Sequence record: PV730299.1
DNA: 64,000 bases
Reading direction: 5' to 3' (one strand)
Source of the DNA: a phage
The first letter of the stretch is position 1; each line of letters opens with the position of its first letter. Under the pieces are notes generated by a model that did not search any database, was not told the origin of the DNA, and saw only the letters and a list, made by a program, of their open reading frames with translations. The position numbers and the translations under genes are program-made. Shown here piece after piece: positions 35,759 through 61,803 of this stretch.

Positions 35759-36130
35759 TTATTTCAGGAGTGCTTCCAGTTCTTCAACAGATTTGCTTTC
35801 CAGCTCTTGCTGTTTCTTACGCTGGATCAGCTCCAGGATAATCTGGTTGTTCGCCTTACGCTCTGCCGCTTCTCTGCTGTCGTCACGTTCTTTCAGCTTA
35901 ACGCCGATGATGTGCTTGACAACGTCGAAGCGCAGCTGCAGTTCGGAGTCAACGTTGCTTTTGGTGCCAATGAAATCTTCTTCATCGGTTTCTGCTGCTT
36001 TCACCTGACGGCTCAGACCTTTCGCCATTTCGTTCAGGGCAGTCAGGCTCAGGTCCCAGACCTGCTCAACAGACAGCAGACCTTTGTTAGACTCGAAGCG
36101 CAGTTTCATACGGGTTGCTTTATCAAACAT
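35759..36130 (-). CDS. hypothetical protein (predicted coiled-coil)
   Basis: 123 aa; SD GAGGATAGTAAA-ATG. Confidence 0.55.
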   Translation of the reverse strand: MFDKATRMKLRFESNKGLLSVEQVWDLSLTALNEMAKGLSRQVKAAETDEEDFIGTKSNVDSELQLRFDVVKHIIGVKLKERDDSREAAERKANNQIILELIQRKKQQELESKSVEELEALLK

Positions 36131-36174
36131 TTTACTATCCTCAATGATGAATGGGTTACAATTTCAAATCAGGT

Positions 36175-38193
36175 TTAGAACACAACTTTCACAGTGCGGT
36201 TGAACGAACCGCTCACCTTCACGAACACGTGGTTACGTTGGGTGGTAGAGAAGCCCAGACCGGACAGCTGCTCAGTGCTTGGCTGTACTTTAATCTTACC
36301 ACCTAACATTTCAAAAACCTTGCGGTGTTTATCAAGTTCCGGCTTCAGATATTCGTTATAGAAACCACGGGTGCCGACAGGGTTAGCACAACCTTCCAGG
36401 ATGAAGAACACGTGCTTGTTGCCCGTCTGCTCGCCGTCCCAATGGTTTGGTGAGTTCAGAACCAGCTGTACCTTCTGGAAGACGGAGGTCTTGATGCCCC
36501 AGATTTCCTGAGAGCGAGCGTCGTCTTTCAGGGTAGAACTGATGTCAACCACCTGACCAGCGCGAACCTGAACCACAACAGCCAACGTGCGATCTTTGTT
36601 ACCCAAGCCAGGGTGTGAGAAGCGCTTAGTCTGACCTTTGTATTCAACTTCGATTTCGAAACCAACGTCACAGGTTTCACGCTTGTTGAAGTTGGTGACA
36701 TAGAACTCATAATTCCCGTCGCGCAGCTTGCTTTCATCGCTAAAGAAGATGTTCTCCACCGGACGGCGGTTTGGATCAATGCCGTCCATACCGTTCATGT
36801 CGATGTCCAGAGTTGCGCCAGTTGACGAACGACGGTTGCGAAAATATACGTGGTTGTGAAGAGGATCGTTCATGCTCAGATCCAGGTCGTCGTTGTTATG
36901 CCAAGCCAGTGACACACGGAGGAAACTGTCGACATTACCACCTGCGGTCTTCACGCGCTCTTTGATGGAGTCGGCCACTTCGCCATTGTACGACCAGCTG
37001 AAGCCGTTGTTCCACTTGAACAGGTTAGGAGCGCCTGCGGTGGCCGGAGCGATCAGGGACATCAGGTTGCCAATGTGAGAGTTTTCGACCAGCACTTCCA
37101 GGGAATGCGCCTTTGGCAACACGTTTGTCAGGAAGTCGTCGATCGTGATCTCTTCAACCTTGTCCAGGGACTTGGTCGGAGTCTTCACTTCAGACGCCAG
37201 CTGAGCAAACGGGTCCATCTTCTTCTGAGCTGCCAGATCGGCGAACAGAACGTTGTTGATGGTCAGATCGTCATACACGGCATAACGGCGACCCAGTGAA
37301 TCAGTCAGACCCAGCGCTTCGACTTCTTTCTGCGCGTTTTCAATCATCGACTTCGTGACCAGCGCGGTTGGGCGCTTGTAGTTCGTCGGAGCGACTTTGG
37401 CTTCAAAGGACTTCACGGCGGTTTCCAGATCCCGGCCTTCATTGAGGTCTACCAGCAGAGAGCCAATCACGGTATTACGAATGCCGTGAGGGGTATGACC
37501 GTTTGCACGGTAGCCAGTGCGCCAAGCCCACAGAGCGCGTTTCTCTTCTGCAGTTTGTTCGTACATGGTCTTGTTCACCACGAACGCCTGCACTGCCGCT
37601 TTGTGCTCTTCACCGCGATACAGAGAATTCTGGTCAATCAATTCCAGAACGATTTCAGCCGATTCCAGAGACAGTTCACGCAGGCCGCGCTCAAACACTT
37701 CAATCGCCTGGCGGATTTCACCCTTCTTAGAAGCGATGGTATCTGCCCGCAGAACATAGCTGCCCAGCAGGTCGGTGTGGAAGTGGTTGTAGGTGCGGAC
37801 AATACCATCTTTCATTTCGTGATTCGACTCAACACCAACTTTCTTGGTGTCGTTGAAGTACACGTCGACGATTGCGTGCTGCTTAACATACGCTGACAGC
37901 GCCGCAGCGACAACGTCGTATTCGTTACCCAGCTGAATGTTATCCCAGATAGAGATCACGTTCAGGTCGGCGTCGATGGTGACCACACCGCCGATGTTAC
38001 GGATGAATTGTTTACAGCAGGTGCAGTCGTGCTCGGTACGCTCACGGTAGAGCGGGTTGGTACCAGCAGGAAAAGAAGACAGATACAGATCCCACAGAGC
38101 ATCTTTATCGATGTTGGTCATGAACAGACCAGTTGCTGACATGGCTAGCACGTTGTTGTTAACAGCTACTGCGAAGGGCTTAAATTCTGACAT
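36175..38193 (-). CDS. large hypothetical protein (672 aa)
   Basis: Uninterrupted ORF with SD AGGAAGACTACACC-ATG; no polymerase, ligase or helicase motifs found by eye. Confidence 0.7.
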   Translation of the reverse strand: MSEFKPFAVAVNNNVLAMSATGLFMTNIDKDALWDLYLSSFPAGTNPLYRERTEHDCTCCKQFIRNIGGVVTIDADLNVISIWDNIQLGNEYDVVAAALSAYVKQHAIVDVYFNDTKKVGVESNHEMKDGIVRTYNHFHTDLLGSYVLRADTIASKKGEIRQAIEVFERGLRELSLESAEIVLELIDQNSLYRGEEHKAAVQAFVVNKTMYEQTAEEKRALWAWRTGYRANGHTPHGIRNTVIGSLLVDLNEGRDLETAVKSFEAKVAPTNYKRPTALVTKSMIENAQKEVEALGLTDSLGRRYAVYDDLTINNVLFADLAAQKKMDPFAQLASEVKTPTKSLDKVEEITIDDFLTNVLPKAHSLEVLVENSHIGNLMSLIAPATAGAPNLFKWNNGFSWSYNGEVADSIKERVKTAGGNVDSFLRVSLAWHNNDDLDLSMNDPLHNHVYFRNRRSSTGATLDIDMNGMDGIDPNRRPVENIFFSDESKLRDGNYEFYVTNFNKRETCDVGFEIEVEYKGQTKRFSHPGLGNKDRTLAVVVQVRAGQVVDISSTLKDDARSQEIWGIKTSVFQKVQLVLNSPNHWDGEQTGNKHVFFILEGCANPVGTRGFYNEYLKPELDKHRKVFEMLGGKIKVQPSTEQLSGLGFSTTQRNHVFVKVSGSFNRTVKVVF

Positions 38194-38533
38194 GGTGTAG
38201 TCTTCCTGTTTCAGTTCAAATGTGCGCCCCGTTTGCCAGGGCGCTTCGTTTAAGTGAGGTCAATAATACGTTGAAAAGAGTTATTGAAGAACGAAGTAAA
38301 GGGAATCTTTATTCAGACGATCTTACCGCCGTCACAAGGCCGAGTATCACCGGAGTTGTATGCCAACATCCCCTGCATCAACAAACGTCTTGGCCCAGAA
38401 ACTGATTTCTGTTTCCTCAACGTACTACAAAACCGAGTAGTGCCTGGGTAAGGAGTGTACACGAGACGTCCTTCCATACGGGCTTTCAGAAGAAACTCAT
38501 CAGTCGCTTTACGCAGTTTGAACAATTTCCAGC

Positions 38534-39463
38534 TCATTTCTCACCCTTGTATCTTTTTAACCATTTGACGCATTTTAATGGTTCCCACCCTTTATTGAAA
38601 CGTTCGATTATCCCACTGGTGGCATTAAACGCCTTCAGATCTTTTGTTCCGTACACATGCATGAGGGCTTCTGAACGTTTCATCGTTTTCAGGGCTTCAA
38701 GGAATTGATCAGCTTTCTCCCAATATACGTCATTGTCGGGGTTCCATTTACCCTTCTCCCAAGGCATCTTAGCCAACATGCCTTTCTGAGCGTTTTCTTT
38801 CTGTTTGGCGCGTTGCTCTGGTGTGAATGAGTTGGTTAAGTCCTTCCCATAATTGGGATTGAGTTCCCCCAGTTTAGCTTTCCTGGCACATTCAGAAAAT
38901 TGTTCTAAATCCATGTTGGCGCGGCGTTTCTCTAAAACCCGCCTTTTATATTCAGGATCAGAAGCCATCCTTTCATGGATTTTCATCAATCCTTTGGTAA
39001 TTTTCTTGACTTGCTCTGGGGTTCTCTTATACCCATATTGGGGATTATTCTTTCCTCTTCTCCCATACATTGGGTTGTCTTTACCCACAAACCGAGAAAC
39101 CCCTTTCCATTGTAAAGACAGTTGTTCGCTGAATTTAATTCTGAAACGTTCATACAAATGAGAATTAAACCGAATACCTGATTTATTTCTTCTTCCTCCC
39201 TTTCTCATAGCTACCACAGCATACACCATTCTCGTGTTTGGGAAAGCCAAGGCCAAGCATACATGGACAAGATAATGTTGTCTGCCTGTTAATCGAACCA
39301 AATTTATCTTATCTTTAGAATATTCAGGGAACATGCTCTTGGGAAGGATGTGGTGCAATTCAGTGTAGTCACCATCAGAATATTTGAAAGATTGAATCAT
39401 CCTCAAATACTTCTTGATAAAATGCGGTTTACCGCCTTTAGAAATCAATAATTCGTAAAACAT
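38534..39463 (-). CDS. HNH homing endonuclease with NUMOD3-like repeats (free-standing mobile gene)
   Basis: 309 aa; HNH core TELHHILPKS; repeated NPMYGRRGKNNPQYGYKRTPE / LNPNYGKDLT modules; gene and flanks are markedly AT-richer than neighbours. Confidence 0.8.
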   Translation of the reverse strand: MFYELLISKGGKPHFIKKYLRMIQSFKYSDGDYTELHHILPKSMFPEYSKDKINLVRLTGRQHYLVHVCLALAFPNTRMVYAVVAMRKGGRRNKSGIRFNSHLYERFRIKFSEQLSLQWKGVSRFVGKDNPMYGRRGKNNPQYGYKRTPEQVKKITKGLMKIHERMASDPEYKRRVLEKRRANMDLEQFSECARKAKLGELNPNYGKDLTNSFTPEQRAKQKENAQKGMLAKMPWEKGKWNPDNDVYWEKADQFLEALKTMKRSEALMHVYGTKDLKAFNATSGIIERFNKGWEPLKCVKWLKRYKGEK

Positions 39464-39522
39464 AACAGGAACTCCAAATGAAAGTTCCTGTTATAATATA
39501 CTTTCTTAATTCACAAAGTAAG

Positions 39523-40719
39523 TTACTTTTTAAATAAATTTAGTAGGTTTTTAGAACCAGATGTCGCCGCTTTGGGTTGTCCTTCCCCATTGTATCCAAC
39601 CTTCCCGCGCGGTTTTTTACCTTGCTGTATGGCCTCTACACAACGGGTATATTTCGACAATTCACAAAAGTGGTTTTCTAACTGTTGAACATTCATACAC
39701 TGATCCCAAGGCTCTTCCGCAGACCAGAATTGCTCACGAACATACCCATATTGGGAATACACCGCGTCCTGATTGTCCCGCAACCAGAAGATGCATTCTT
39801 CATGCGTCATGCCATCTTTGTCCTGGAACATCAGATCAATCCCTGCGCGACAGCCTGGTCCAGCAACCGTGAAGTGGTTCTCACTGAAAGGATATCCAGG
39901 AATGTAAGTGAAGTCTACCCAGATCTGATAGGCCAGGAATGGACCAAGCCCTTCGATGTCGTCATACATGCGCTGGTATACTTCCAAAGGAGTACCAAGG
40001 CGCAGCAGGTCATGGAAATAATTTGGATACTTGTTGACGAATGCCTTCAGGGAGCGGATGACACGCATTGGCATGTACGGTTCCCAACCTTCGATGGTGT
40101 AGAAGTCCGGCTCTGCTTCGGCTATCGCCTTGGCTTCTTTATAATCCATGTTCTGGGTTGAACCGTCTTTACAGATCAGATTCACCATCATCCCACCGAA
40201 GCACTGCTCCTTGTGGTTGACAACCATCTCAGGGAAAGCCAGGCATTGCTTCAGGCCGCCCGTGTTGAAGGCATTGGTGAATACCTTACCACCGTCGGCC
40301 TCGAACTTCTGAAGTCGTTCGCGGGTTGCATCGAGGTTGATCTCGGCGAATTCTTTGATCGTCATCGCGCCGCCGATAGCCTGGATTGGATCCCAGAGGT
40401 TGAACATGCGGAACAACACGCAGTTGAACATCTTGTCGGCCATACTCAGAGCATCGTTGTTGACGATGTTGTTGATCAGGTTGAGAGATTGCCTGTCGTG
40501 CTCTCTCCGGACATTACAGAACTTGACCTGCCGTAGTATGGGATTATCAGTCCAAGGAGCAGGAAGGCGCTGGACGTCCTTCTTGACGTGGATCTGATAA
40601 CGATCGCGCATCCATTCGTAAGACAGGCGGGTATGGGTCGGACTGAGAACCGGTTTGGCCGACTTTATCTTTTCTTCACGGACACCGCAGTACGGGACGT
40701 CCAGGGCTTTATCTTTCAT
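39523..40719 (-). CDS. hypothetical protein (398 aa)
   Basis: Uninterrupted ORF; SD AAGAGGATACC-ATG; no family recognised. Confidence 0.65.
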   Translation of the reverse strand: MKDKALDVPYCGVREEKIKSAKPVLSPTHTRLSYEWMRDRYQIHVKKDVQRLPAPWTDNPILRQVKFCNVRREHDRQSLNLINNIVNNDALSMADKMFNCVLFRMFNLWDPIQAIGGAMTIKEFAEINLDATRERLQKFEADGGKVFTNAFNTGGLKQCLAFPEMVVNHKEQCFGGMMVNLICKDGSTQNMDYKEAKAIAEAEPDFYTIEGWEPYMPMRVIRSLKAFVNKYPNYFHDLLRLGTPLEVYQRMYDDIEGLGPFLAYQIWVDFTYIPGYPFSENHFTVAGPGCRAGIDLMFQDKDGMTHEECIFWLRDNQDAVYSQYGYVREQFWSAEEPWDQCMNVQQLENHFCELSKYTRCVEAIQQGKKPRGKVGYNGEGQPKAATSGSKNLLNLFKK

Positions 40720-40730
40720 GGTATCCTCTT

Positions 40731-40765
40731 AGAATACGAAAACAGAGGCCATTATAGCCTCTGTT
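40731..40765 (-). terminator. rho-independent terminator
   Basis: Hairpin AACAGAGGC-N7-GCCTCTGTT followed by TTTCGTATTC on the minus-strand transcript. Confidence 0.6.
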
Positions 40766-40787
40766 GTTTAGTGAATAACCGTATATC

Positions 40788-41660
40788 TTAATCGATACGT
40801 GTCAGTTGGGTGATAGATGATTGCACTGGGCTGGCCACATAGATACGGACGTTGGCTTTCCATTCACCCCAGATCAACGGTAGAGTTGGGAAGTTGTCTT
40901 CATTGAAAACAAACACGGGAATGTAGCTCTCGACTGTTTCGCCAGAGAACGCCTGGAAGCCCATCTTGGTGTATCCCATGATCTCGTCAATAAAATCGAA
41001 CGGAGCGAAGGCAACACCAGCGTGTTCGTTAGAACCGAGCTGGCCTGGAATGGCCGTGCCCGTCAGAATGATTTCGGTGATCTGGCGCTTAGGCTCGGTG
41101 GTCAACATATCAGAGAAGTCAGGCTCTTTGAAGGTTGCCATGTTCTTCAGGAACTTGCCAGCCGGGTACTCTTTGCCGTCGACGGTGATGGTGTCTACCA
41201 CTTTGATGCACGCCTGAGGGAATTCCCCTTCGATGCGTAGACTTTCGCGTGGGAAGCCTTTGTTGTAGTAGTAATCCAGTGCAGGCACAACTTCACCTTC
41301 ATTACGGATGAACTTGCTCATGTTAGAGGCATACACGCGCTGTAGGCATTCGTCACCGTCGAAACCAGCAATATGAGCCACGCCGTCGTTGACTGTTGTG
41401 ATGTCACCCTGGGCATCCATGATCTGGCGCATAATGTCTTTGATGTCGACAACAACGGGTTCTTTCAGGACTCGAGGAGATGCGGCGAACTCAATTTTCA
41501 CCTCGTGGTCGAAATACGCCGCTTCTAGCAGTTCACGAGTTTCTTCCAGCACCAGTTTCGCCTGATTGCGGATCTTACCAAAGTCGGGCGATGTGACGTC
41601 GCCCTTTGCATTACCGAAAGCCAGATTCAGATTCACGTTCTTAGAAAATGTAGTTGTCAT
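40788..41660 (-). CDS. hypothetical protein (290 aa)
   Basis: Uninterrupted ORF between regA and the 398-aa gene; no family recognised. Confidence 0.65.
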   Translation of the reverse strand: MTTTFSKNVNLNLAFGNAKGDVTSPDFGKIRNQAKLVLEETRELLEAAYFDHEVKIEFAASPRVLKEPVVVDIKDIMRQIMDAQGDITTVNDGVAHIAGFDGDECLQRVYASNMSKFIRNEGEVVPALDYYYNKGFPRESLRIEGEFPQACIKVVDTITVDGKEYPAGKFLKNMATFKEPDFSDMLTTEPKRQITEIILTGTAIPGQLGSNEHAGVAFAPFDFIDEIMGYTKMGFQAFSGETVESYIPVFVFNEDNFPTLPLIWGEWKANVRIYVASPVQSSITQLTRID

Positions 41661-51232: not shown

Positions 51233-53143
51233 TTAGTTCAAGACATATTTGATCAGTCCACAATTCCAAATCCTGACCAGCCCGGCTTCGGTTGCTAACT
51301 GATCTTCTGTCTTACCTTCTACGTCATAGCCCATCTGAGCAAAGTCTGCCTTTCTGAATCCAAACTTGTGCTCCCGCATGAGAGTCCCTGGTTTGTGATA
51401 TTTGTAATCCGGGTCTTGTATTTCTTCCTCGACGAACCCGTGAGAAAGATAAATGTTGGACAACCGACTAACAACACACCTATCGCCAAAGGAGAAAGTC
51501 TTCACGCCATCCCAGAGATGTTCCTTGTAGTACGCCAGCAGTTTAGAGAACGCCCCGTGAATGCCGTCGGAGGCAAACCTCGTAAGTTCCATACACTGTT
51601 CCCCCTTCACCACACGTTTGATAAAGGTCATAACAGCCCGAACCCGGTTGTCTCTCTTATCTCTGAGGAGAAGGTAATGCGTGGCTGAATGAATGGTGCC
51701 CTGTATGTGTTGAGAGGCCAGGAGTTCTAGAATGTCCGACTTCTTACCTTCCTCTACATAACACTGACGGGCGTACCCGGATGGCTTCTTGATCCCGAGT
51801 TTGGCAGCCAGCAACCCTTTCACGATCTCTGGGTTGTTATGCCACTCATCTTCCCAGATGTGTATCAGCTGAACGCCTTGTGCTTCACATGCCTCTGTCT
51901 TTTCGAGATGATAACGGCGATATTTGTGTATCTCACTATGCCAGTACAGGCCGTTAAATTCAATTGCCAGTTTGTGGTCTGGACAGTAGATGTCGATCTG
52001 GCGCCGAGTTCCACCGTCCTGGCAATTCATATTGTTTAGGAGGGTGAAGTCTGAGCACTTGTGCACAACACCCATTGAGGCGAGCCACTCGGATATTTCT
52101 ATTTCTGGTTTGGACTGGAATTTACGGAAAGAAATAATGTATTCCCAAACGGATTTGTTTTGCATAGCATACGGAACGCCATATAACTCAATATTTTTTA
52201 TCCTGGCATTTTCTAAGCAAACTTCTGTGTTTAGAGAGCATTTAACCCCGTAACGATCGAATACAGTTTTTCCTATCTTATCTCGAATTTCTTGTACTTG
52301 TCCCGTCCATTCCTTTCCGTATCTTTCTAAATTGGTCTTGATCAATTTGTTTAAGACTGCAGCATCACGCATAGGATGACCGCCCTCATACTCCCCGAAT
52401 GCCTTCTCTCGTGCCGCTTTACCTTCTGGGGTAGCATACCAAGACCGAGCACCGAGGGTTTCCCAGGCGCGCTGTTTGACCTCTTCCACCTGCATCGGAT
52501 GCTCAACTCCATACTTCTTCATCACGGAATCTTTGAACAGCTGTCGCCCATGTTCTGATTGCATAACATGTTCCGCACCGAAACGCCGAAGTAAGGTAGC
52601 TCTTGCCCTACCCTTTACAGATTCATTCTGGAATACGTTGGATACACCATATTTGTCAAGGATTGTCTTGTCCAAGACTTTACGGGCTTCACCACCCAAC
52701 TTCATTGATTGGGCATAGCATTCCTCCGAACAATATTTCCGGTAGGATGGGATAGACTTCTTAATCTCGACAGAAGTTCTAGCACCGCAGGTGATACAAG
52801 GTGTTGGTTTGACGTCGTGTAACCAGACCAATACACGGGCGTTCACGGATTCTTCAGAGTTGTGCTGGTTGGCATATTTGAGGGGGTCTACGCCAAGGTA
52901 AGATGACAACAGGGGTGAAGACAGTAGTTGGTAATTCAGGTTGCCATTCTTCATATAGAAATATTCACGGATGAAGTCTTTGTAGTCATCTTCAGTTTGA
53001 ATAAATTTGGCGTCCGACATTAACTCTGGGGAGAATTTGATACCAACTGTTTGGTAAAAGGTTCTGCAATCAACACTACAGTAGACGGCCTTTGACTGGG
53101 CATTGACGAATGAGGTTTTGCATGTCCGGCATATATGAATCAT
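51233..53143 (-). CDS. putative homing-endonuclease-like protein (zinc ribbons, tandem YG...PMQ repeats, C-terminal Vsr/DUF559-like nuclease domain)
   Basis: 636 aa; N-terminal CRTCKTSF...CSVDC and CITCGARTS...CSEEC; five repeats of the KYGV.HPMQ type; C-terminal QIDIYCPDHKLAIEFNGLYWHSE resembles the PD-(D/E)xK Vsr-like motif. Confidence 0.6.
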   Translation of the reverse strand: MIHICRTCKTSFVNAQSKAVYCSVDCRTFYQTVGIKFSPELMSDAKFIQTEDDYKDFIREYFYMKNGNLNYQLLSSPLLSSYLGVDPLKYANQHNSEESVNARVLVWLHDVKPTPCITCGARTSVEIKKSIPSYRKYCSEECYAQSMKLGGEARKVLDKTILDKYGVSNVFQNESVKGRARATLLRRFGAEHVMQSEHGRQLFKDSVMKKYGVEHPMQVEEVKQRAWETLGARSWYATPEGKAAREKAFGEYEGGHPMRDAAVLNKLIKTNLERYGKEWTGQVQEIRDKIGKTVFDRYGVKCSLNTEVCLENARIKNIELYGVPYAMQNKSVWEYIISFRKFQSKPEIEISEWLASMGVVHKCSDFTLLNNMNCQDGGTRRQIDIYCPDHKLAIEFNGLYWHSEIHKYRRYHLEKTEACEAQGVQLIHIWEDEWHNNPEIVKGLLAAKLGIKKPSGYARQCYVEEGKKSDILELLASQHIQGTIHSATHYLLLRDKRDNRVRAVMTFIKRVVKGEQCMELTRFASDGIHGAFSKLLAYYKEHLWDGVKTFSFGDRCVVSRLSNIYLSHGFVEEEIQDPDYKYHKPGTLMREHKFGFRKADFAQMGYDVEGKTEDQLATEAGLVRIWNCGLIKYVLN

Positions 53144-53247: not shown

Positions 53248-54579
53248 TTAGAACAGGCCTTTGATCAGCCCTTTACGGAAATACACGTTGGTGTCCTTGG
53301 CGATACCATCCGCAGTCACATAGACCTGTGGATCCTGGTTCGCTGGGATCTGAACGAATGGGTTAGCACAAATCCCGTAGCGGGTCTTGAACGCCATACG
53401 TGGTGCGAAGGTGGTTTCACCCTGGGTGCGGTACATTTCCAGCGGCACGTATGGCGCGAAGAAGATACCAGCATCCAGCGCGGTTGCACCTTTGTATGCC
53501 AGGGTGATGTATTCTGCTACTGCATACGGGTCGATATAGACACGCATACCGTTAGACAGCACACCAGCGAAGGTCTGACCAGTCGGATCAATCGCCAGCT
53601 TGGTGTTTTCCTGCAGCGCCGGAGCATAATCCAGCATGCCGGACATCGCCAGAGCGGATGCTACGTTCGGAGAGCACAGAACACGGTTGCCTTTACCACG
53701 ACGGGTGTCAACACCGATGCCGTTCGCTTCAACTTCCAGCATGAAAGTCATGTACTTCCATTTTTCCAGCGCCCAACGACCGGAGATGTCAGTGGAGATA
53801 TCTACGATACCGTTGGTGCCGAATTTTTTGAAGCGTACTGCGCTGAAGTTCATGGTGCGGATAAACTCACGGTTCATCTCTGCCTGAATTTCAGTTACCA
53901 TCACGTCGGACAGGATGCTGTCAACGTCTTCGCCGTGGATCGCCATCATGTCCTGGCGCAGTTCGTGGCTGTAGTCAGCGTACAGGCCGCGAGACTTCGC
54001 AGTCACGGTTGCTTTCTGAACGGTGATACCAACACGTGCCCATGGGTTGGTGGTGGTGCCCAGCAGTTCAGCGTCGGCAGTTGACATACCTTTACCGATG
54101 GTGGTGGTAGCAGCGCCGGAACCTTCGATCTCAGTCTGGGAGAAGCCAGATGGGTCGCCAGCCTGTGCAGTGTCGTCACCGGAGTAACCGGAGTTGGCTT
54201 CGTTCATGAACAGCTCAGCGCGGGACTGGGCAGTGTTGGAGCCGTCTGCAACACCCTGGCGAGCACGCAGTGCGAAGATCTGACCGTCAGGACCAGACAG
54301 CGGCTGAACGCCGAAGAAGTCCATCGCGATGTTGACCGGAGCCAGGCGTTTGGCCATGTCGATCAGGACTGGCTGCCATTTGCCCACAGAGGCGTTCACG
54401 GAGCCAGGAGCGTCGGATTCGCCCAGGTTTTTGGCGTTCCACTCAGCCTGGTTTTGCAGCAGACGGACGGCAACGTTTTCGGCAGAAAGCGGCTGGATGC
54501 TTTCAGATTCTTTCTGAAGAACTGGCAGCCACTGCTCGCGCATTTGTTCAGTAACAAGTTTCTTAGCCATGATGGTCAT
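53248..54579 (-). CDS. 23: major capsid protein, T4 gp23-like
   Basis: 443 aa; blocks FALRA, NPW, KSRGLYADYS, EMNREF, FAGVL, RVYIDPYA, YKGATALDAGIFFAPYVPL, FKTRYGI, NPF, YFRKGL are collinear with T4 gp23. Confidence 0.95.
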   Translation of the reverse strand: MTIMAKKLVTEQMREQWLPVLQKESESIQPLSAENVAVRLLQNQAEWNAKNLGESDAPGSVNASVGKWQPVLIDMAKRLAPVNIAMDFFGVQPLSGPDGQIFALRARQGVADGSNTAQSRAELFMNEANSGYSGDDTAQAGDPSGFSQTEIEGSGAATTTIGKGMSTADAELLGTTTNPWARVGITVQKATVTAKSRGLYADYSHELRQDMMAIHGEDVDSILSDVMVTEIQAEMNREFIRTMNFSAVRFKKFGTNGIVDISTDISGRWALEKWKYMTFMLEVEANGIGVDTRRGKGNRVLCSPNVASALAMSGMLDYAPALQENTKLAIDPTGQTFAGVLSNGMRVYIDPYAVAEYITLAYKGATALDAGIFFAPYVPLEMYRTQGETTFAPRMAFKTRYGICANPFVQIPANQDPQVYVTADGIAKDTNVYFRKGLIKGLF

Positions 54580-59075: not shown

Positions 59076-59771
59076 TTACACAATTCTAATTAGCTGCCAA
59101 CCCGTCGTGTTCAAACGCTCTGCGGTCGCAGTTTTCCTATGATACACAGACGGTGGTGGAACTGGAATACCCTTGTCGATGTAATCATAGAGTGCTGAAT
59201 ATTTAAGTCCCAACCTCTCCACATATTCACGACAGTTCCCGTGGATTTCGTGTTCTTCGCCGGAAGGAGATACCAATTTGAATCGCTTGGCATTGGAGTT
59301 TTTGGATCCGATTCTGCTCTTTGCAAATACAGATAAACTCTTCGAGAACGAACGTTTGACTCCGGTCTTACAATGTATCAGTTCCCCTGTAGCCCACCTT
59401 GGGTCATCACAGCCAACAAGACCAATTCGCTCTCCTGTTGACGCATCAATAGCACCTGTCTTTCCATAGAATGTCGCACCGTCACCACCCCAAGTTTTGT
59501 TGTACCCTTTCAGGGACATGTGGGTGCCATGCTGCTTAATCAATATGATCTCTAATTCTTTCAAGTCTTTCAGGGACTTGGTCTGGGCTATCACCTGTAC
59601 AGAAAATAATTCTTCTCCATATTTGCGGATAGCCTGATGAACAAAGTAACCAGAGCCGTTTTGAGCGCTGTTACAATGTTCCCACCACCTATCGATGGGA
59701 TCACGCGTGGTGATCCCGATATAGGCTTTCTGATTGACTAGATTTGTAATTTTGTAAACACTTCCGATCAT
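59076..59771 (-). CDS. GIY-YIG homing endonuclease (free-standing, between sheath and tube genes)
   Basis: 231 aa; N-terminal VYKITN...KAYIGIT (GIY...YIG), conserved Arg and Glu/Asn of the catalytic domain, C-terminal basic DNA-binding region. Confidence 0.8.
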   Translation of the reverse strand: MIGSVYKITNLVNQKAYIGITTRDPIDRWWEHCNSAQNGSGYFVHQAIRKYGEELFSVQVIAQTKSLKDLKELEIILIKQHGTHMSLKGYNKTWGGDGATFYGKTGAIDASTGERIGLVGCDDPRWATGELIHCKTGVKRSFSKSLSVFAKSRIGSKNSNAKRFKLVSPSGEEHEIHGNCREYVERLGLKYSALYDYIDKGIPVPPPSVYHRKTATAERLNTTGWQLIRIV

Positions 59772-59855: not shown

Positions 59856-61751
59856 TCAAGAAGCAGCGACGATACCACCGCCGGATTCGATCTCACTGAA
59901 TTCCATGTCTGGACGCACGGAAGCAAAATCTAAAAATATCCAATTAATACTGTACTCTGGTTTCAGCCAGATACCCGCGACCATCTGGTTCGCAGCGATG
60001 ATGTCGGCGGTGTTGTTGTCCTCGTCACACTTCACCATCCCGTCATAGATCGCGCCCATGTTGGCCAACTGGCGGATATATGGGCGGACAGCGTTGCTGA
60101 ACAACCCACGAGTGAATGCATCGTTGTTCTCACCAAGGTAGTATTTGGCGATGGCTGCGATGTTCTGCTCTGCCATAATGAACAGACCACGAACGTTGAT
60201 GCGGTCGAACGCAGATGGGCGGGTCAGGCCAGTCTTGTCGCCGTACAACACGATGCCTTCGTTGGAGAAGGTGACGATGCTGTTGATCTGGTTGCGATAC
60301 AACACAGCACGCTCATCAGAAGACGCAGACCACGCCATTCGATTATAGTTGTTGTATTTACCACGGTTGTGGAACGCTGGAGACTTGTAGATACCCGCGA
60401 TTTCAATGCTTCGCGCCCAAACACCTGCGGTGCCACCACAAGCCGGAATCCAACGCATTTTGTCGTTGTACTTGTCGTACACATACGCCCAGTTGTCATC
60501 CATGAAGAAGTAGGAGGAGTCGCGAACAAGGCTTTCACGCCAGGCCACAACATCATCCATCTCACGGCCACGGTTTCCGACGACCGTATCGCGAAGAGGA
60601 GACACGAAGGACACTGTGTCTTTACGCTCGGTGGACAGGTCGATCAGTGCCTGCTGCTCAATCAGTTCTTCACAGAAACCGAACACTGGCTTGGCATCAT
60701 ACGCTTCGGCGTTGTTCAGTGCCTGGATAGCCGCAACACGGTTCCCAGTGTAATCGTCTACACCACCTTCGAGTTCAATGACACCAGCAGCCAGGGTAGT
60801 GGCGAAGGTGTACACCCAATTTGAGGTGCCGTTGATCACGTCTTTGAAGTACGCATTGGATCCATCAGATTTCTTAGAACCCTGAGCGGTCTGCACCAGT
60901 TCATACTTCTCGATGATCGTACCGGAAGCACCAACAGTGGTGACGGCAGCGGTAGCAGTCAGACCATTCGCGTCTGGAACAATCGCAGTCGCAGCCTGAG
61001 GACCGATTGCTTTGTGAGTGACGGTGACGGTGTTGGACTTCACGACAACAGAAGAATACACGCTAGACAGAGACGTCAGCGCAGTTCCGATCTTTGTCGC
61101 CAGAGTCGCCGGGGTGTCAGCGTCAGTGTATGCCACGGCTTCCCCAGCAACAGAGATGGAACCAGCAGCGGTGGCAGTACCGGATACAGAGATACGATCA
61201 ACCTGACTAACAGCGCCAGAAGAGTCGGTAATGCGACCTACTTTGTCAACGATGGCGATATGGTACTCGCCATCCTGCGGAGCATATGCGAAGTTGTTAC
61301 GGAATTCCCAGGTCGGGAACAGCGCAGCGTCACAGATGTTCACAGCAATGTCGTTACCCAGAGAGCCAGCATAGCGGCCTGTCCAGGTAATAGACGCAGA
61401 TGGGGACGCAGTTTCGAAGTCTAGTTTGTTGCGGATAAGGATTGCAGTCTGACCTTTGGTTACAGCGTTGCGTGCCGCCGGACCGACCACACGGGTCACC
61501 CATGCAACAGAGCTGTAAGACAGGAAGTCAGCAATCACCAAGAAGTCGGTGGCAGTTGCATCGTTTGGCTTGAAGAATTTCTTCACCAGACCAGTTTCGC
61601 CACCAGTGACCAACACAGGGAGTTCTGCTTCACCCCATTGGAATTTGCCGACAGTCGCACCCTGAACAACAACGGATGGAGACGTCTGAAGCGTGGCATC
61701 ACGCTCAGTCCACTGTACGGACGGCGCAACGCTGAAGCTTTGAGTTGCCAT
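59856..61751 (-). CDS. 18: tail sheath protein, T4 gp18-like
   Basis: C-terminal blocks DKYNDKMRWIP, YGDKTGLTRPSAFDRINVRGLF, AFTRGLF are collinear with T4 gp18 (DKYNDVNRWVP, YGDKTATSVPSPFDRINVRRLF); start taken at MATQSF. Confidence 0.9.
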   Translation of the reverse strand: MATQSFSVAPSVQWTERDATLQTSPSVVVQGATVGKFQWGEAELPVLVTGGETGLVKKFFKPNDATATDFLVIADFLSYSSVAWVTRVVGPAARNAVTKGQTAILIRNKLDFETASPSASITWTGRYAGSLGNDIAVNICDAALFPTWEFRNNFAYAPQDGEYHIAIVDKVGRITDSSGAVSQVDRISVSGTATAAGSISVAGEAVAYTDADTPATLATKIGTALTSLSSVYSSVVVKSNTVTVTHKAIGPQAATAIVPDANGLTATAAVTTVGASGTIIEKYELVQTAQGSKKSDGSNAYFKDVINGTSNWVYTFATTLAAGVIELEGGVDDYTGNRVAAIQALNNAEAYDAKPVFGFCEELIEQQALIDLSTERKDTVSFVSPLRDTVVGNRGREMDDVVAWRESLVRDSSYFFMDDNWAYVYDKYNDKMRWIPACGGTAGVWARSIEIAGIYKSPAFHNRGKYNNYNRMAWSASSDERAVLYRNQINSIVTFSNEGIVLYGDKTGLTRPSAFDRINVRGLFIMAEQNIAAIAKYYLGENNDAFTRGLFSNAVRPYIRQLANMGAIYDGMVKCDEDNNTADIIAANQMVAGIWLKPEYSINWIFLDFASVRPDMEFSEIESGGGIVAAS

Positions 61752-61803
61752 AATCTTATTCCTTCTCTGTAGAGTTTCGCTCAATTTGAAAGATATTTAG
61801 TGA

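Follow-up and report, generated by a model that had tools for sequence, protein, structure and literature searches.

The 64,000-nucleotide stretch of phage DNA analyzed here (sequence record PV730299.1; hereafter, the window) very probably carries a laterally acquired, free-standing (intron-less) homing endonuclease gene (HEG) of the HNH type, T4 Mob-like and with NUMOD3-type modules, as judged by sequence comparison. The HEG occupies positions 38534..39463 on the minus strand and encodes an intact protein of 309 amino acids from an ATG start, as originally predicted; the assignment draws on the open reading frame (ORF) itself, on PHROG and Pfam matches, and on the ratio of nonsynonymous to synonymous substitution rates (dN/dS). 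It lies between two other minus-strand genes: upstream, a 398-aa aGPT-Pplase-like thymidine-hypermodification gene at 39523..40719 (hereafter, the Pplase gene), which matches PF18723 (5-hmdU DNA kinase helical domain, Pfam E 2e-81), and downstream, a gene for a 672-aa protein of unknown function (36175-38193). The window is 97–98% identical to the Escherichia phages A221, ZQ1, and AV101 (Ackermannviridae, Aglimvirinae) and therefore derives from an Agtrevirus-like Ackermannviridae phage. The element belongs to a well-known class, and public genomes already list its orthologues at this locus as homing endonucleases.

The encoded protein has a predicted three-part layout: an N-terminal HNH nuclease, a central NUMOD3 linker, and a C-terminal DNA-binding module. 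It matches PHROG 655 (‘homing endonuclease’) from end to end (E 8e-63) and phrog_12434 (‘HNH endonuclease’) at residues 16-90 (E 1e-17). The putative β-β-α core of the HNH (His-Me finger) domain, TELHHILPKSMFPEYSKDKINLVRLTGRQHYLVHVCLALA, maps to residues 34-73 (39245..39364, minus strand). Residues H37, H38, N54, H63, and H67 are invariant in alignments of 12–14 sequences that include homologues only 28–37% identical, and one such homologue (P0010, 35% identity, E 2e-17) has a PF01844 match at the aligned residues. In an AlphaFold model, the N-terminal domain is predicted with a per-residue confidence (pLDDT) of 85-93, and the strand-strand-helix succession at residues 34-38, 55-59, and 60-73 reproduces, in the model, the ββα-metal fold of an HNH core. 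A NUMOD3 DNA-binding motif (PF07460) scores 23.3 bits, above the gathering cutoff of 20.4, with its best stretch at residues 136-155 (38999..39058, minus strand). A second NUMOD3-like copy, KLGELNPNYGKD, lies near residues 197-212 (38828-38875, minus strand), PF07460 giving two stretches at E ≤ 10; its residues G199, N202, and P203 are invariant. Thus, the HNH/NUMOD3 designation in the original prediction holds, with NUMOD3 above the Pfam threshold and the HNH assignment supported by the motif, the homologues, and the predicted fold.

The HEG and its surroundings are visibly AT-rich, and calculation bears out that description. The GC content is 0.404 for the HEG, 0.414 for the region 38313-39522, and 0.288 for the 59-nt spacer upstream of the HEG, compared with 0.497 for the window. 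In sliding windows of 930 and 1210 nt, the region is the minimum of the entire 64 kb (z −3.6); only 0.7% of sliding windows are equally low in GC, and every one of them overlaps the endonuclease region. Among the 59 ORFs of at least 100 aa, the HEG has the lowest GC content (0.404 against 0.498 ± 0.027), and its GC at third codon positions is likewise low (0.432 against 0.577 ± 0.066). Orthologues in phages phiD3, RPN242, and XF4 have a GC content of 0.40-0.42 in hosts of differing GC, so the element retains its own composition. A blastp search of the rest of the window turned up no HEG paralogue.

The borders of the island were set by blastn against ZQ1, A221, and Marshall together with anchored extraction of junction sequences, and fall at 38316/38317 and 39592/39593. 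These three relatives align to the window only over 36000-38316 and 39593 (39587)-42000, and the 1276-nt island (38317..39592) stands for about 87 nt in ZQ1, where, as in A221, the Pplase gene and the 672-aa gene are separated by a spacer of 114 nt. Hence, the island originally delimited as 38313-39522 is real, but its upper border lies ~70 nt further, at 39592, inside the 3′ end of the Pplase gene.

Phage records matching positions 37500-40500 number 266, of which 42 span the whole locus. An island at exactly the same locus, downstream of the PF18723 gene, is found in about 43 phage records from Kuttervirus (e.g., Det7, PMBT18, SJ3), Agtrevirus (AV101, RPN242), and Limestonevirus (phiD3). AV101 and RPN242 are the only other HEG carriers among the Escherichia phages listed, with copies 91% and about 80-90% identical, respectively. 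The site is empty in the nearest relatives, ZQ1, A221, PC3, PH4, YX22, and Ag3, and also in the Kuttervirus Marshall, where only the flanks match. Sliding identity comparisons revealed that the window is 94–100% identical to the Kuttervirus PMBT18 from 38317 to about 39800, whereas the flanks are 98–100% ZQ1-like; the endonuclease itself is 98% identical to the copy in Salmonella phage SJ3. A PMBT18-like island within ZQ1-like flanks therefore points to lateral acquisition by recombination. The synteny check agrees with the lateral origin proposed from the sequence alone: the nearest relatives are empty and the carriers are scattered over three genera.

The last 70 nt of the Pplase gene (39523..39592, minus strand), encoding a tail that ends in GYNGEGQPKAATSGSKNLLNLFKK before the stop codon, appear to be a replacement linked to the HEG, and blastn alignments to empty alleles end at 39593. 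Tail alleles were compared by translation from a shared anchor. All six HNH-HEG carriers examined have a tail of the form ...GEGQPKA(A/T)TSGSKNLLNLFKK followed by a stop codon. HEG-less tails end in ...GYDGGGEYKKRCDEVVLKRGSVNLLDRLKKPE and a stop codon, the EYKKRCDEVVLKRGS type, and HEG-less genomes in general, including those discussed below that carry only the small neighboring gene, follow the pattern ...GYDG(G/S)G(E/D)YKKRCDEVVLKRGSVNLL(D/E)R(L/M)KK.... The Limestonevirus XF4, which carries a GIY-YIG endonuclease gene at this position, has a third version ending in ...GEGTPSTKSRSLLDMIRK and a stop codon. The HEG-linked tail has a GC content of 0.371; that of the ZQ1 tail is 0.479, and the remainder of the Pplase gene is at 0.505. 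A 129-nt segment comprising the tail and the promoter-like box described below occurs in 43 records and the HEG-less tail in 106, with no name in common among the matches listed. Linkage between HEG and tail is thus complete in all carriers examined, an outcome that would follow from a recognition or cleavage site in the 3′ end of the Pplase gene, with a version in carriers that resists the enzyme. From this pattern, we give the 3′ end of the Pplase gene about an even chance of being the target of the endonuclease.

Traces of exchange extend beyond the island on both sides. They were read from informative sites, namely those that separate the Kuttervirus carriers (PMBT18 = Det7) from the two empty Agtrevirus genomes (ZQ1 = A221). 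Within the Pplase gene, 14 donor-type sites in a row delineate a Kuttervirus-like patch at 39727..39760, and the window is recipient-type beyond 39772; between 39700 and 39799, it is 94–96% identical to PMBT18/Det7 and 85% identical to ZQ1. On the side of the 672-aa gene, patchy Kuttervirus-like sites are found at 38047..38277: within about 270 nt of the island, 9 of 33 informative sites are donor-type, and at greater distances none of 123 is (Fisher p 3e-7). AV101 and RPN242 have donor-type patches of their own at other positions, which suggests separate events. This pattern fits the reported placement of HEGs at the boundaries of genetic exchange (PMC10448857). Taken together, the divergent linked tail and the patchy tracts look, by sequence comparison, like the signature of intronless homing.

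The same data bear on the alternative that the HEG is an ancestral Ackermannviridae gene, lost repeatedly, whose low GC content reflects function (an AT-rich, highly expressed or late gene). The gene is always at the same locus, and copies differ by a synonymous divergence (dS) of up to about 1.0 (window versus phiD3), which makes the family old within the group. Repeated loss is nevertheless highly improbable: an island 94–100% Kuttervirus-like inside a 98–100% Agtrevirus backbone contradicts the backbone phylogeny, donor-type patches on both flanks thin out as the distance from the island grows, and in distant lineages the junctions of the empty sites are clean and identical, with a Pplase tail that is distinct and conserved. 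Furthermore, in Limestonevirus, the C-terminal module found here carries a GIY-YIG domain at this very site.

Lateral acquisition by homing can be rationalized as follows. In a mixed infection, the enzyme would nick or cut the allele that lacks the HEG; the most probable place is within or close to the final ~90 nt of the Pplase gene. The break would then be repaired by recombination from the HEG-carrying genome. Repair would copy in the endonuclease gene, the substitute Pplase tail, presumed to be cleavage-resistant, and neighboring DNA, which here would include a small passenger gene.

The region upstream of the HEG may control when the endonuclease is made. A 15-bp RNA hairpin is predicted at 39461..39495 (minus strand), with a 3′ arm that contains the Shine–Dalgarno sequence GGAG (39472-39475) and the AUG (39461-39463). 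Its folding energy is −25.2 kcal/mol for a 91-nt context (z −5.1), and none of 200 shuffled sequences folds equally well. The hairpin is conserved in all HNH-HEG carriers, with a variable loop length, and in Det7 an A-to-G change preserves a G-U pair. Overlapping the 5′ arm is an A/T-rich, promoter-like box, TATATTATAA (39491..39500, minus strand), that occurs once in the window and is conserved in carriers. In I-TevI, I-TevII, I-TevIII, segB, and Aeh1 mobE, read-through transcripts hide the ribosome-binding site (RBS), and a transcript from a promoter at the 5′ arm of the hairpin exposes it (PMC2988022). By analogy with I-TevI and Aeh1 mobE, transcripts reading through from the Pplase operon would bury the Shine–Dalgarno sequence and AUG in the 15-bp hairpin, and a transcript starting just downstream of TATATTATAA would lack the 5′ arm and hence be translatable. 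We put this timing model forward tentatively, somewhat short of an even chance. Of the two signals reported from the sequence alone, the Shine–Dalgarno-containing hairpin is strong, and the promoter-like sequence is not significant by itself.

Several results weigh against the interpretation of the island as a homing HNH element, or against parts of it. First, Pfam and NCBIfam searches of the window protein gave no HNH match (NUMOD3 or nothing), and no solved HNH structure in the PDB was matched with a significant E-value; a family profile gave weak matches to the HNH domains of 6me0 (E 0.16) and 4uhp (E 0.68), at exactly residues 30-74. A phmmer search of the PDB returned only SMC coiled-coil matches, which were judged spurious. 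Second, the target assignment is drawn from allele linkage only, and because free-standing HEGs are able to cut hundreds of base pairs away from where they are inserted (PMC2988022), the target could be at another position. On the Pplase side, the conversion tract is also interrupted, with two recipient-type sites at 39630-39631 between the island and the donor-type patch. Third, the direction of transfer between the lineage of the window and PMBT18 is ambiguous because PMBT18 is itself Agtrevirus-like over 39800-41300. Finally, for the expression signals, the uniqueness of TATATTATAA in the window is not significant for a 10-mer, the box is not sigma-70-like, a promoter and terminator scan of the minus strand near the gene returned nothing, and the T4 late consensus TATAAATA, from which TATATTATAA differs, was not found upstream of the HEG. 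With TATATTATAA neither T4 late, nor sigma-70, nor statistically distinctive, its promoter function is a conjecture.

PMBT18 is a mosaic in its own right. Its identity to the window is 55–89% across most of the 672-aa gene (36100-38299), 62–83% beyond ~41400, and 90–100% over the Pplase and MazG genes; it thus appears to hold a ~3-kb Agtrevirus-like segment adjoining the HEG in a Kuttervirus genome.

The direct Pfam search, which did not detect HNH, also favors the idea that the protein is a domesticated or decaying former HEG, i.e., a non-cutting DNA-binding protein kept for regulation or awaiting deletion. For several T4 mob genes, activity has never been demonstrated, and I-TevI doubles as a repressor (PMC2988022). 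We consider a former HEG quite improbable, given that no catalytic-motif residue varies among homologues as distant as about 30% identity and that dN/dS among HEG copies is 0.08-0.27 over the whole gene, which is therefore maintained by purifying selection. Near-identical copies in different genera, together with the conversion of their flanks, point to recent active spread. A regulatory role of the I-TevI kind was also sought in an operator shared by the HEG upstream region and the empty site; the similarity score was 11, against 9.2 ± 1.3 for shuffled sequences (p 0.13), and the candidate was rejected.

Downstream of the HEG, a 74-aa ORF (ORF74; 38313..38537, minus strand; phrog_19743, E 2e-52) begins within the HEG stop codon, the two overlapping in ATGA. 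It is a conserved small gene of unknown function, without a match in Pfam, NCBIfam, or the PDB, and has only four close clusters in a set of 5.8 billion proteins. Its GC content of 0.484 is native-like. Between copies of ORF74, dN/dS is 0.02-0.23; relative to Klebsiella phage Menlow, dS has reached saturation although the protein is conserved, which marks ORF74 as an old, real gene. ORF74 occurs in 65 records (30 Klebsiella, 30 Salmonella, 3 Serratia, 1 Escherichia, and 1 Yersinia). In Menlow (Taipeivirus) and Yersinia phage CAU_YEP3, it directly follows the Pplase gene, overlapping the Pplase stop codon, with no endonuclease gene. Two HEG carriers, RPN242 and phiD3, lack ORF74.

The original prediction was that this ORF may be part of the same element as the HEG, and a stronger version would make the pair a two-gene mobile cassette, with ORF74 as an accessory or immunity factor of the endonuclease. 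In this lineage, ORF74 does travel with the HEG: the empty-site relatives, those in Agtrevirus included, have neither gene, the two overlap, and every Salmonella record with ORF74 is also a HEG carrier among the matches listed. A cassette is nonetheless improbable in view of the native-like composition and age of ORF74, its occurrence alone in Menlow and CAU_YEP3 and its presence in about 30 Klebsiella records, and the carriers that lack it. In phiD3, the position is held by a different, unannotated 135-aa ORF (locus L004, 2192-2599, minus strand) that overlaps the HEG end and is Cys-rich (CPAC...CQIC, zinc-ribbon-like). An unannotated ORF74 homologue, 52% identical, is also found at another locus in Serratia phage phiMAM1, between the genes for DNA ligase and gp59 (locus L013, 3001-3219, plus strand). 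RPN242 was considered as a simple deletion of ORF74, an idea dropped on finding that the 3′ end of its HEG (ERYGSSE before the stop codon) is of the type seen in F-LimVI, the GIY-YIG gene described below, and not of the window type. ORF74 is here best read as a hitch-hiker, an independent conserved gene carried as a passenger. On the simplest reading of the sequences, the endonuclease gene would have inserted between the Pplase gene and ORF74 of an ORF74-bearing genome and would since have carried ORF74 along as a co-converted flank.

The further upstream neighbors of the endonuclease gene, beyond the Pplase gene and likewise on the minus strand, are a MazG-like pyrophosphatase and RegA, and the Pplase orthologue in CAU_YEP3 is annotated ‘alpha-glutamyl/putrescinyl thymine pyrophosphorylase clade 1’. 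The Kuttervirus Marshall, which lacks the island, has another HNH endonuclease gene, of 209 aa and unlike the one in the window, on the other side of the Pplase gene, next to MazG (locus L008, 3519-4148, minus strand; PF01844, E 2e-8), which it separates from Pplase, so two independent HEG insertion sites flank Pplase.

The flank on the side of the 672-aa gene has features of its own. The native spacer that precedes the 672-aa gene contains a conserved GC-rich stem-loop, GCGCCCTGGCAAACGGGGCGC (38224-38244, minus strand). Empty-site relatives have it too, and the Kuttervirus version has a loop 3 nt shorter and compensating changes in the stem; the terminator scan did not call it. Within the 672-aa gene, A221 and AV101 fall to 82–91% identity over 36500-36799, where ZQ1 and RPN242 are 97–100% identical, in what appears to be a separate small recombination patch with no relation to the island. 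Marshall and Maynard, both classified as Kuttervirus, are 96% identical to the window across the 672-aa gene, compared with about 55–90% for Det7 and PMBT18; the Marshall equivalent of 36000-38316 is apparently another mosaic block adjoining the HEG site. In XF4, the counterpart of the 672-aa gene (locus L009, 3635-5669) is annotated as five short ORFs, one of them a ‘putative NadV’, which suggests frameshifts, sequencing errors, or pseudogenization.

Two further low-GC ORFs in the window resemble mobile nucleases. The first (59076-59771, minus strand, 231 aa) encodes a GIY-YIG homing endonuclease (PF01541, E 3e-8; phrog_314/5123), has a GC content of 0.45 (0.46 at third codon positions), and lies directly downstream of the tail-sheath gene (59856-61784). 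The second (51233-53143, minus strand, 636 aa, GC 0.46) lies downstream of the major capsid gene (53248-54579) and matches phrog_3339 (‘homing endonuclease’, E 6e-144), phrog_559 (‘HNH endonuclease’), DUF7487, and, weakly, REase_MTES_1575. It may be a third mobile nuclease, although one that is HEG-like only.

As a whole, the locus is a worked example rather than a discovery, in which a low-GC island seen by eye is confirmed as the mark of a mobile endonuclease. Its true borders, 38317-39592, take in the replaced C-terminal tail of a hypermodification gene. Local Agtrevirus/Kuttervirus mosaicism is explained by the island and its conversion tracts in genomes used for phage therapy and biocontrol, and the predicted target, the Pplase 3′ end of HEG-less phages, is directly testable.

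Among the closest known systems are the annotated orthologues in Ackermannviridae, which have 83–98% protein identity and the same locus, linked Pplase tail, promoter box, and hairpin. Det7 gp37 is annotated as ‘homing endonuclease, T4 MobE-like’, the orthologues in SJ3, Se-J, and GG32 as ‘homing endonuclease’, and that of Dickeya phage phiD3 as ‘NUMOD3 motif family protein’. The window differs from these in its Agtrevirus-like backbone, a background in which most sequenced members have an empty site.

Similarity to the T4-type Mob endonucleases (MobA-E), especially MobE of T4 and Aeh1, is evident at several levels. As in MobE of both phages, the putative N-terminal HNH core is of the PF01844/His-Me finger group 1 type; like T4 mob genes, the HEG is free-standing between two phage genes and sporadically distributed; and, as in Aeh1 mobE, an RBS-sequestering hairpin bears an A/T-rich box at its 5′ arm (PMC2988022). 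In tblastn, the T4 mobE locus, situated between nrdA and nrdB, gives a weak but specific match with 26.6% identity over residues 31-206 (E 1e-4). However, the locus and presumed target in the window is the aGPT-Pplase-like gene rather than nrdA/nrdB, and the nrd genes of the window are elsewhere. Moreover, the last 115 aa bear no relation to T4 MobE but are held in common with a GIY-YIG enzyme, and, unlike T-even HEGs, the window HEG has no T4 late-promoter consensus. With a different locus and C-terminal third, the protein appears to be MobE-like and not a strict MobE orthologue. The intronless homing of T4 SegF and SegG offers a parallel for the process, with co-conversion of flanking markers, a diverged target region in carriers, and hitch-hiking neighbors (PMC2988022); homing has been demonstrated experimentally for SegF/SegG, whereas cleavage and homing in the window are inferred from comparative sequence.

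A further comparison is with F-LimVI, a free-standing GIY-YIG, I-TevI-like enzyme (PMC3296691) encoded by the Limestonevirus phages XF4, JA15, and LIMEstone1. Its gene occupies the same position as the window HEG, immediately after the Pplase gene, and its carriers likewise have a non-standard Pplase tail. F-LimVI gives weak, sub-threshold GIY-YIG/SegE matches. The two genes differ in the nuclease domain, and F-LimVI lacks the promoter box, the hairpin, and ORF74, starting 2 nt after the Pplase stop codon. The N-terminal parts are unrelated, but the last ~350 nt (about 115 aa) are 82–91% identical in DNA. This shared C-terminal module corresponds to nucleotides 580-930 of the HEG (38534..38884, minus strand), where blastn with the XF4 F-LimVI gene gave 81.7% identity over 339 nt for the window, 90.8% for phiD3, and 88.5% for RPN242. 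By sequence, the pair appears to have arisen by a swap of nuclease domains on a common C-terminal module, which is joined to an HNH domain in the window, in Kuttervirus, and in part of Limestonevirus, and to a GIY-YIG domain in the other Limestonevirus genomes. That homing endonucleases exchange modules is well known. It is possible, if rather unlikely, that the HNH enzyme and F-LimVI are a natural nuclease swap recognizing the same sequence in hypermodified (5-hmdU-derived) DNA. If so, they would represent a matched HNH/GIY-YIG pair on one specificity module and homing enzymes adapted to hypermodified thymidine, and the replacement tail brought in by the HEG might affect how the modification enzyme works. 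The sharing of a single DNA-binding module by an HNH and a GIY-YIG enzyme could be of interest for modular-nuclease engineering.

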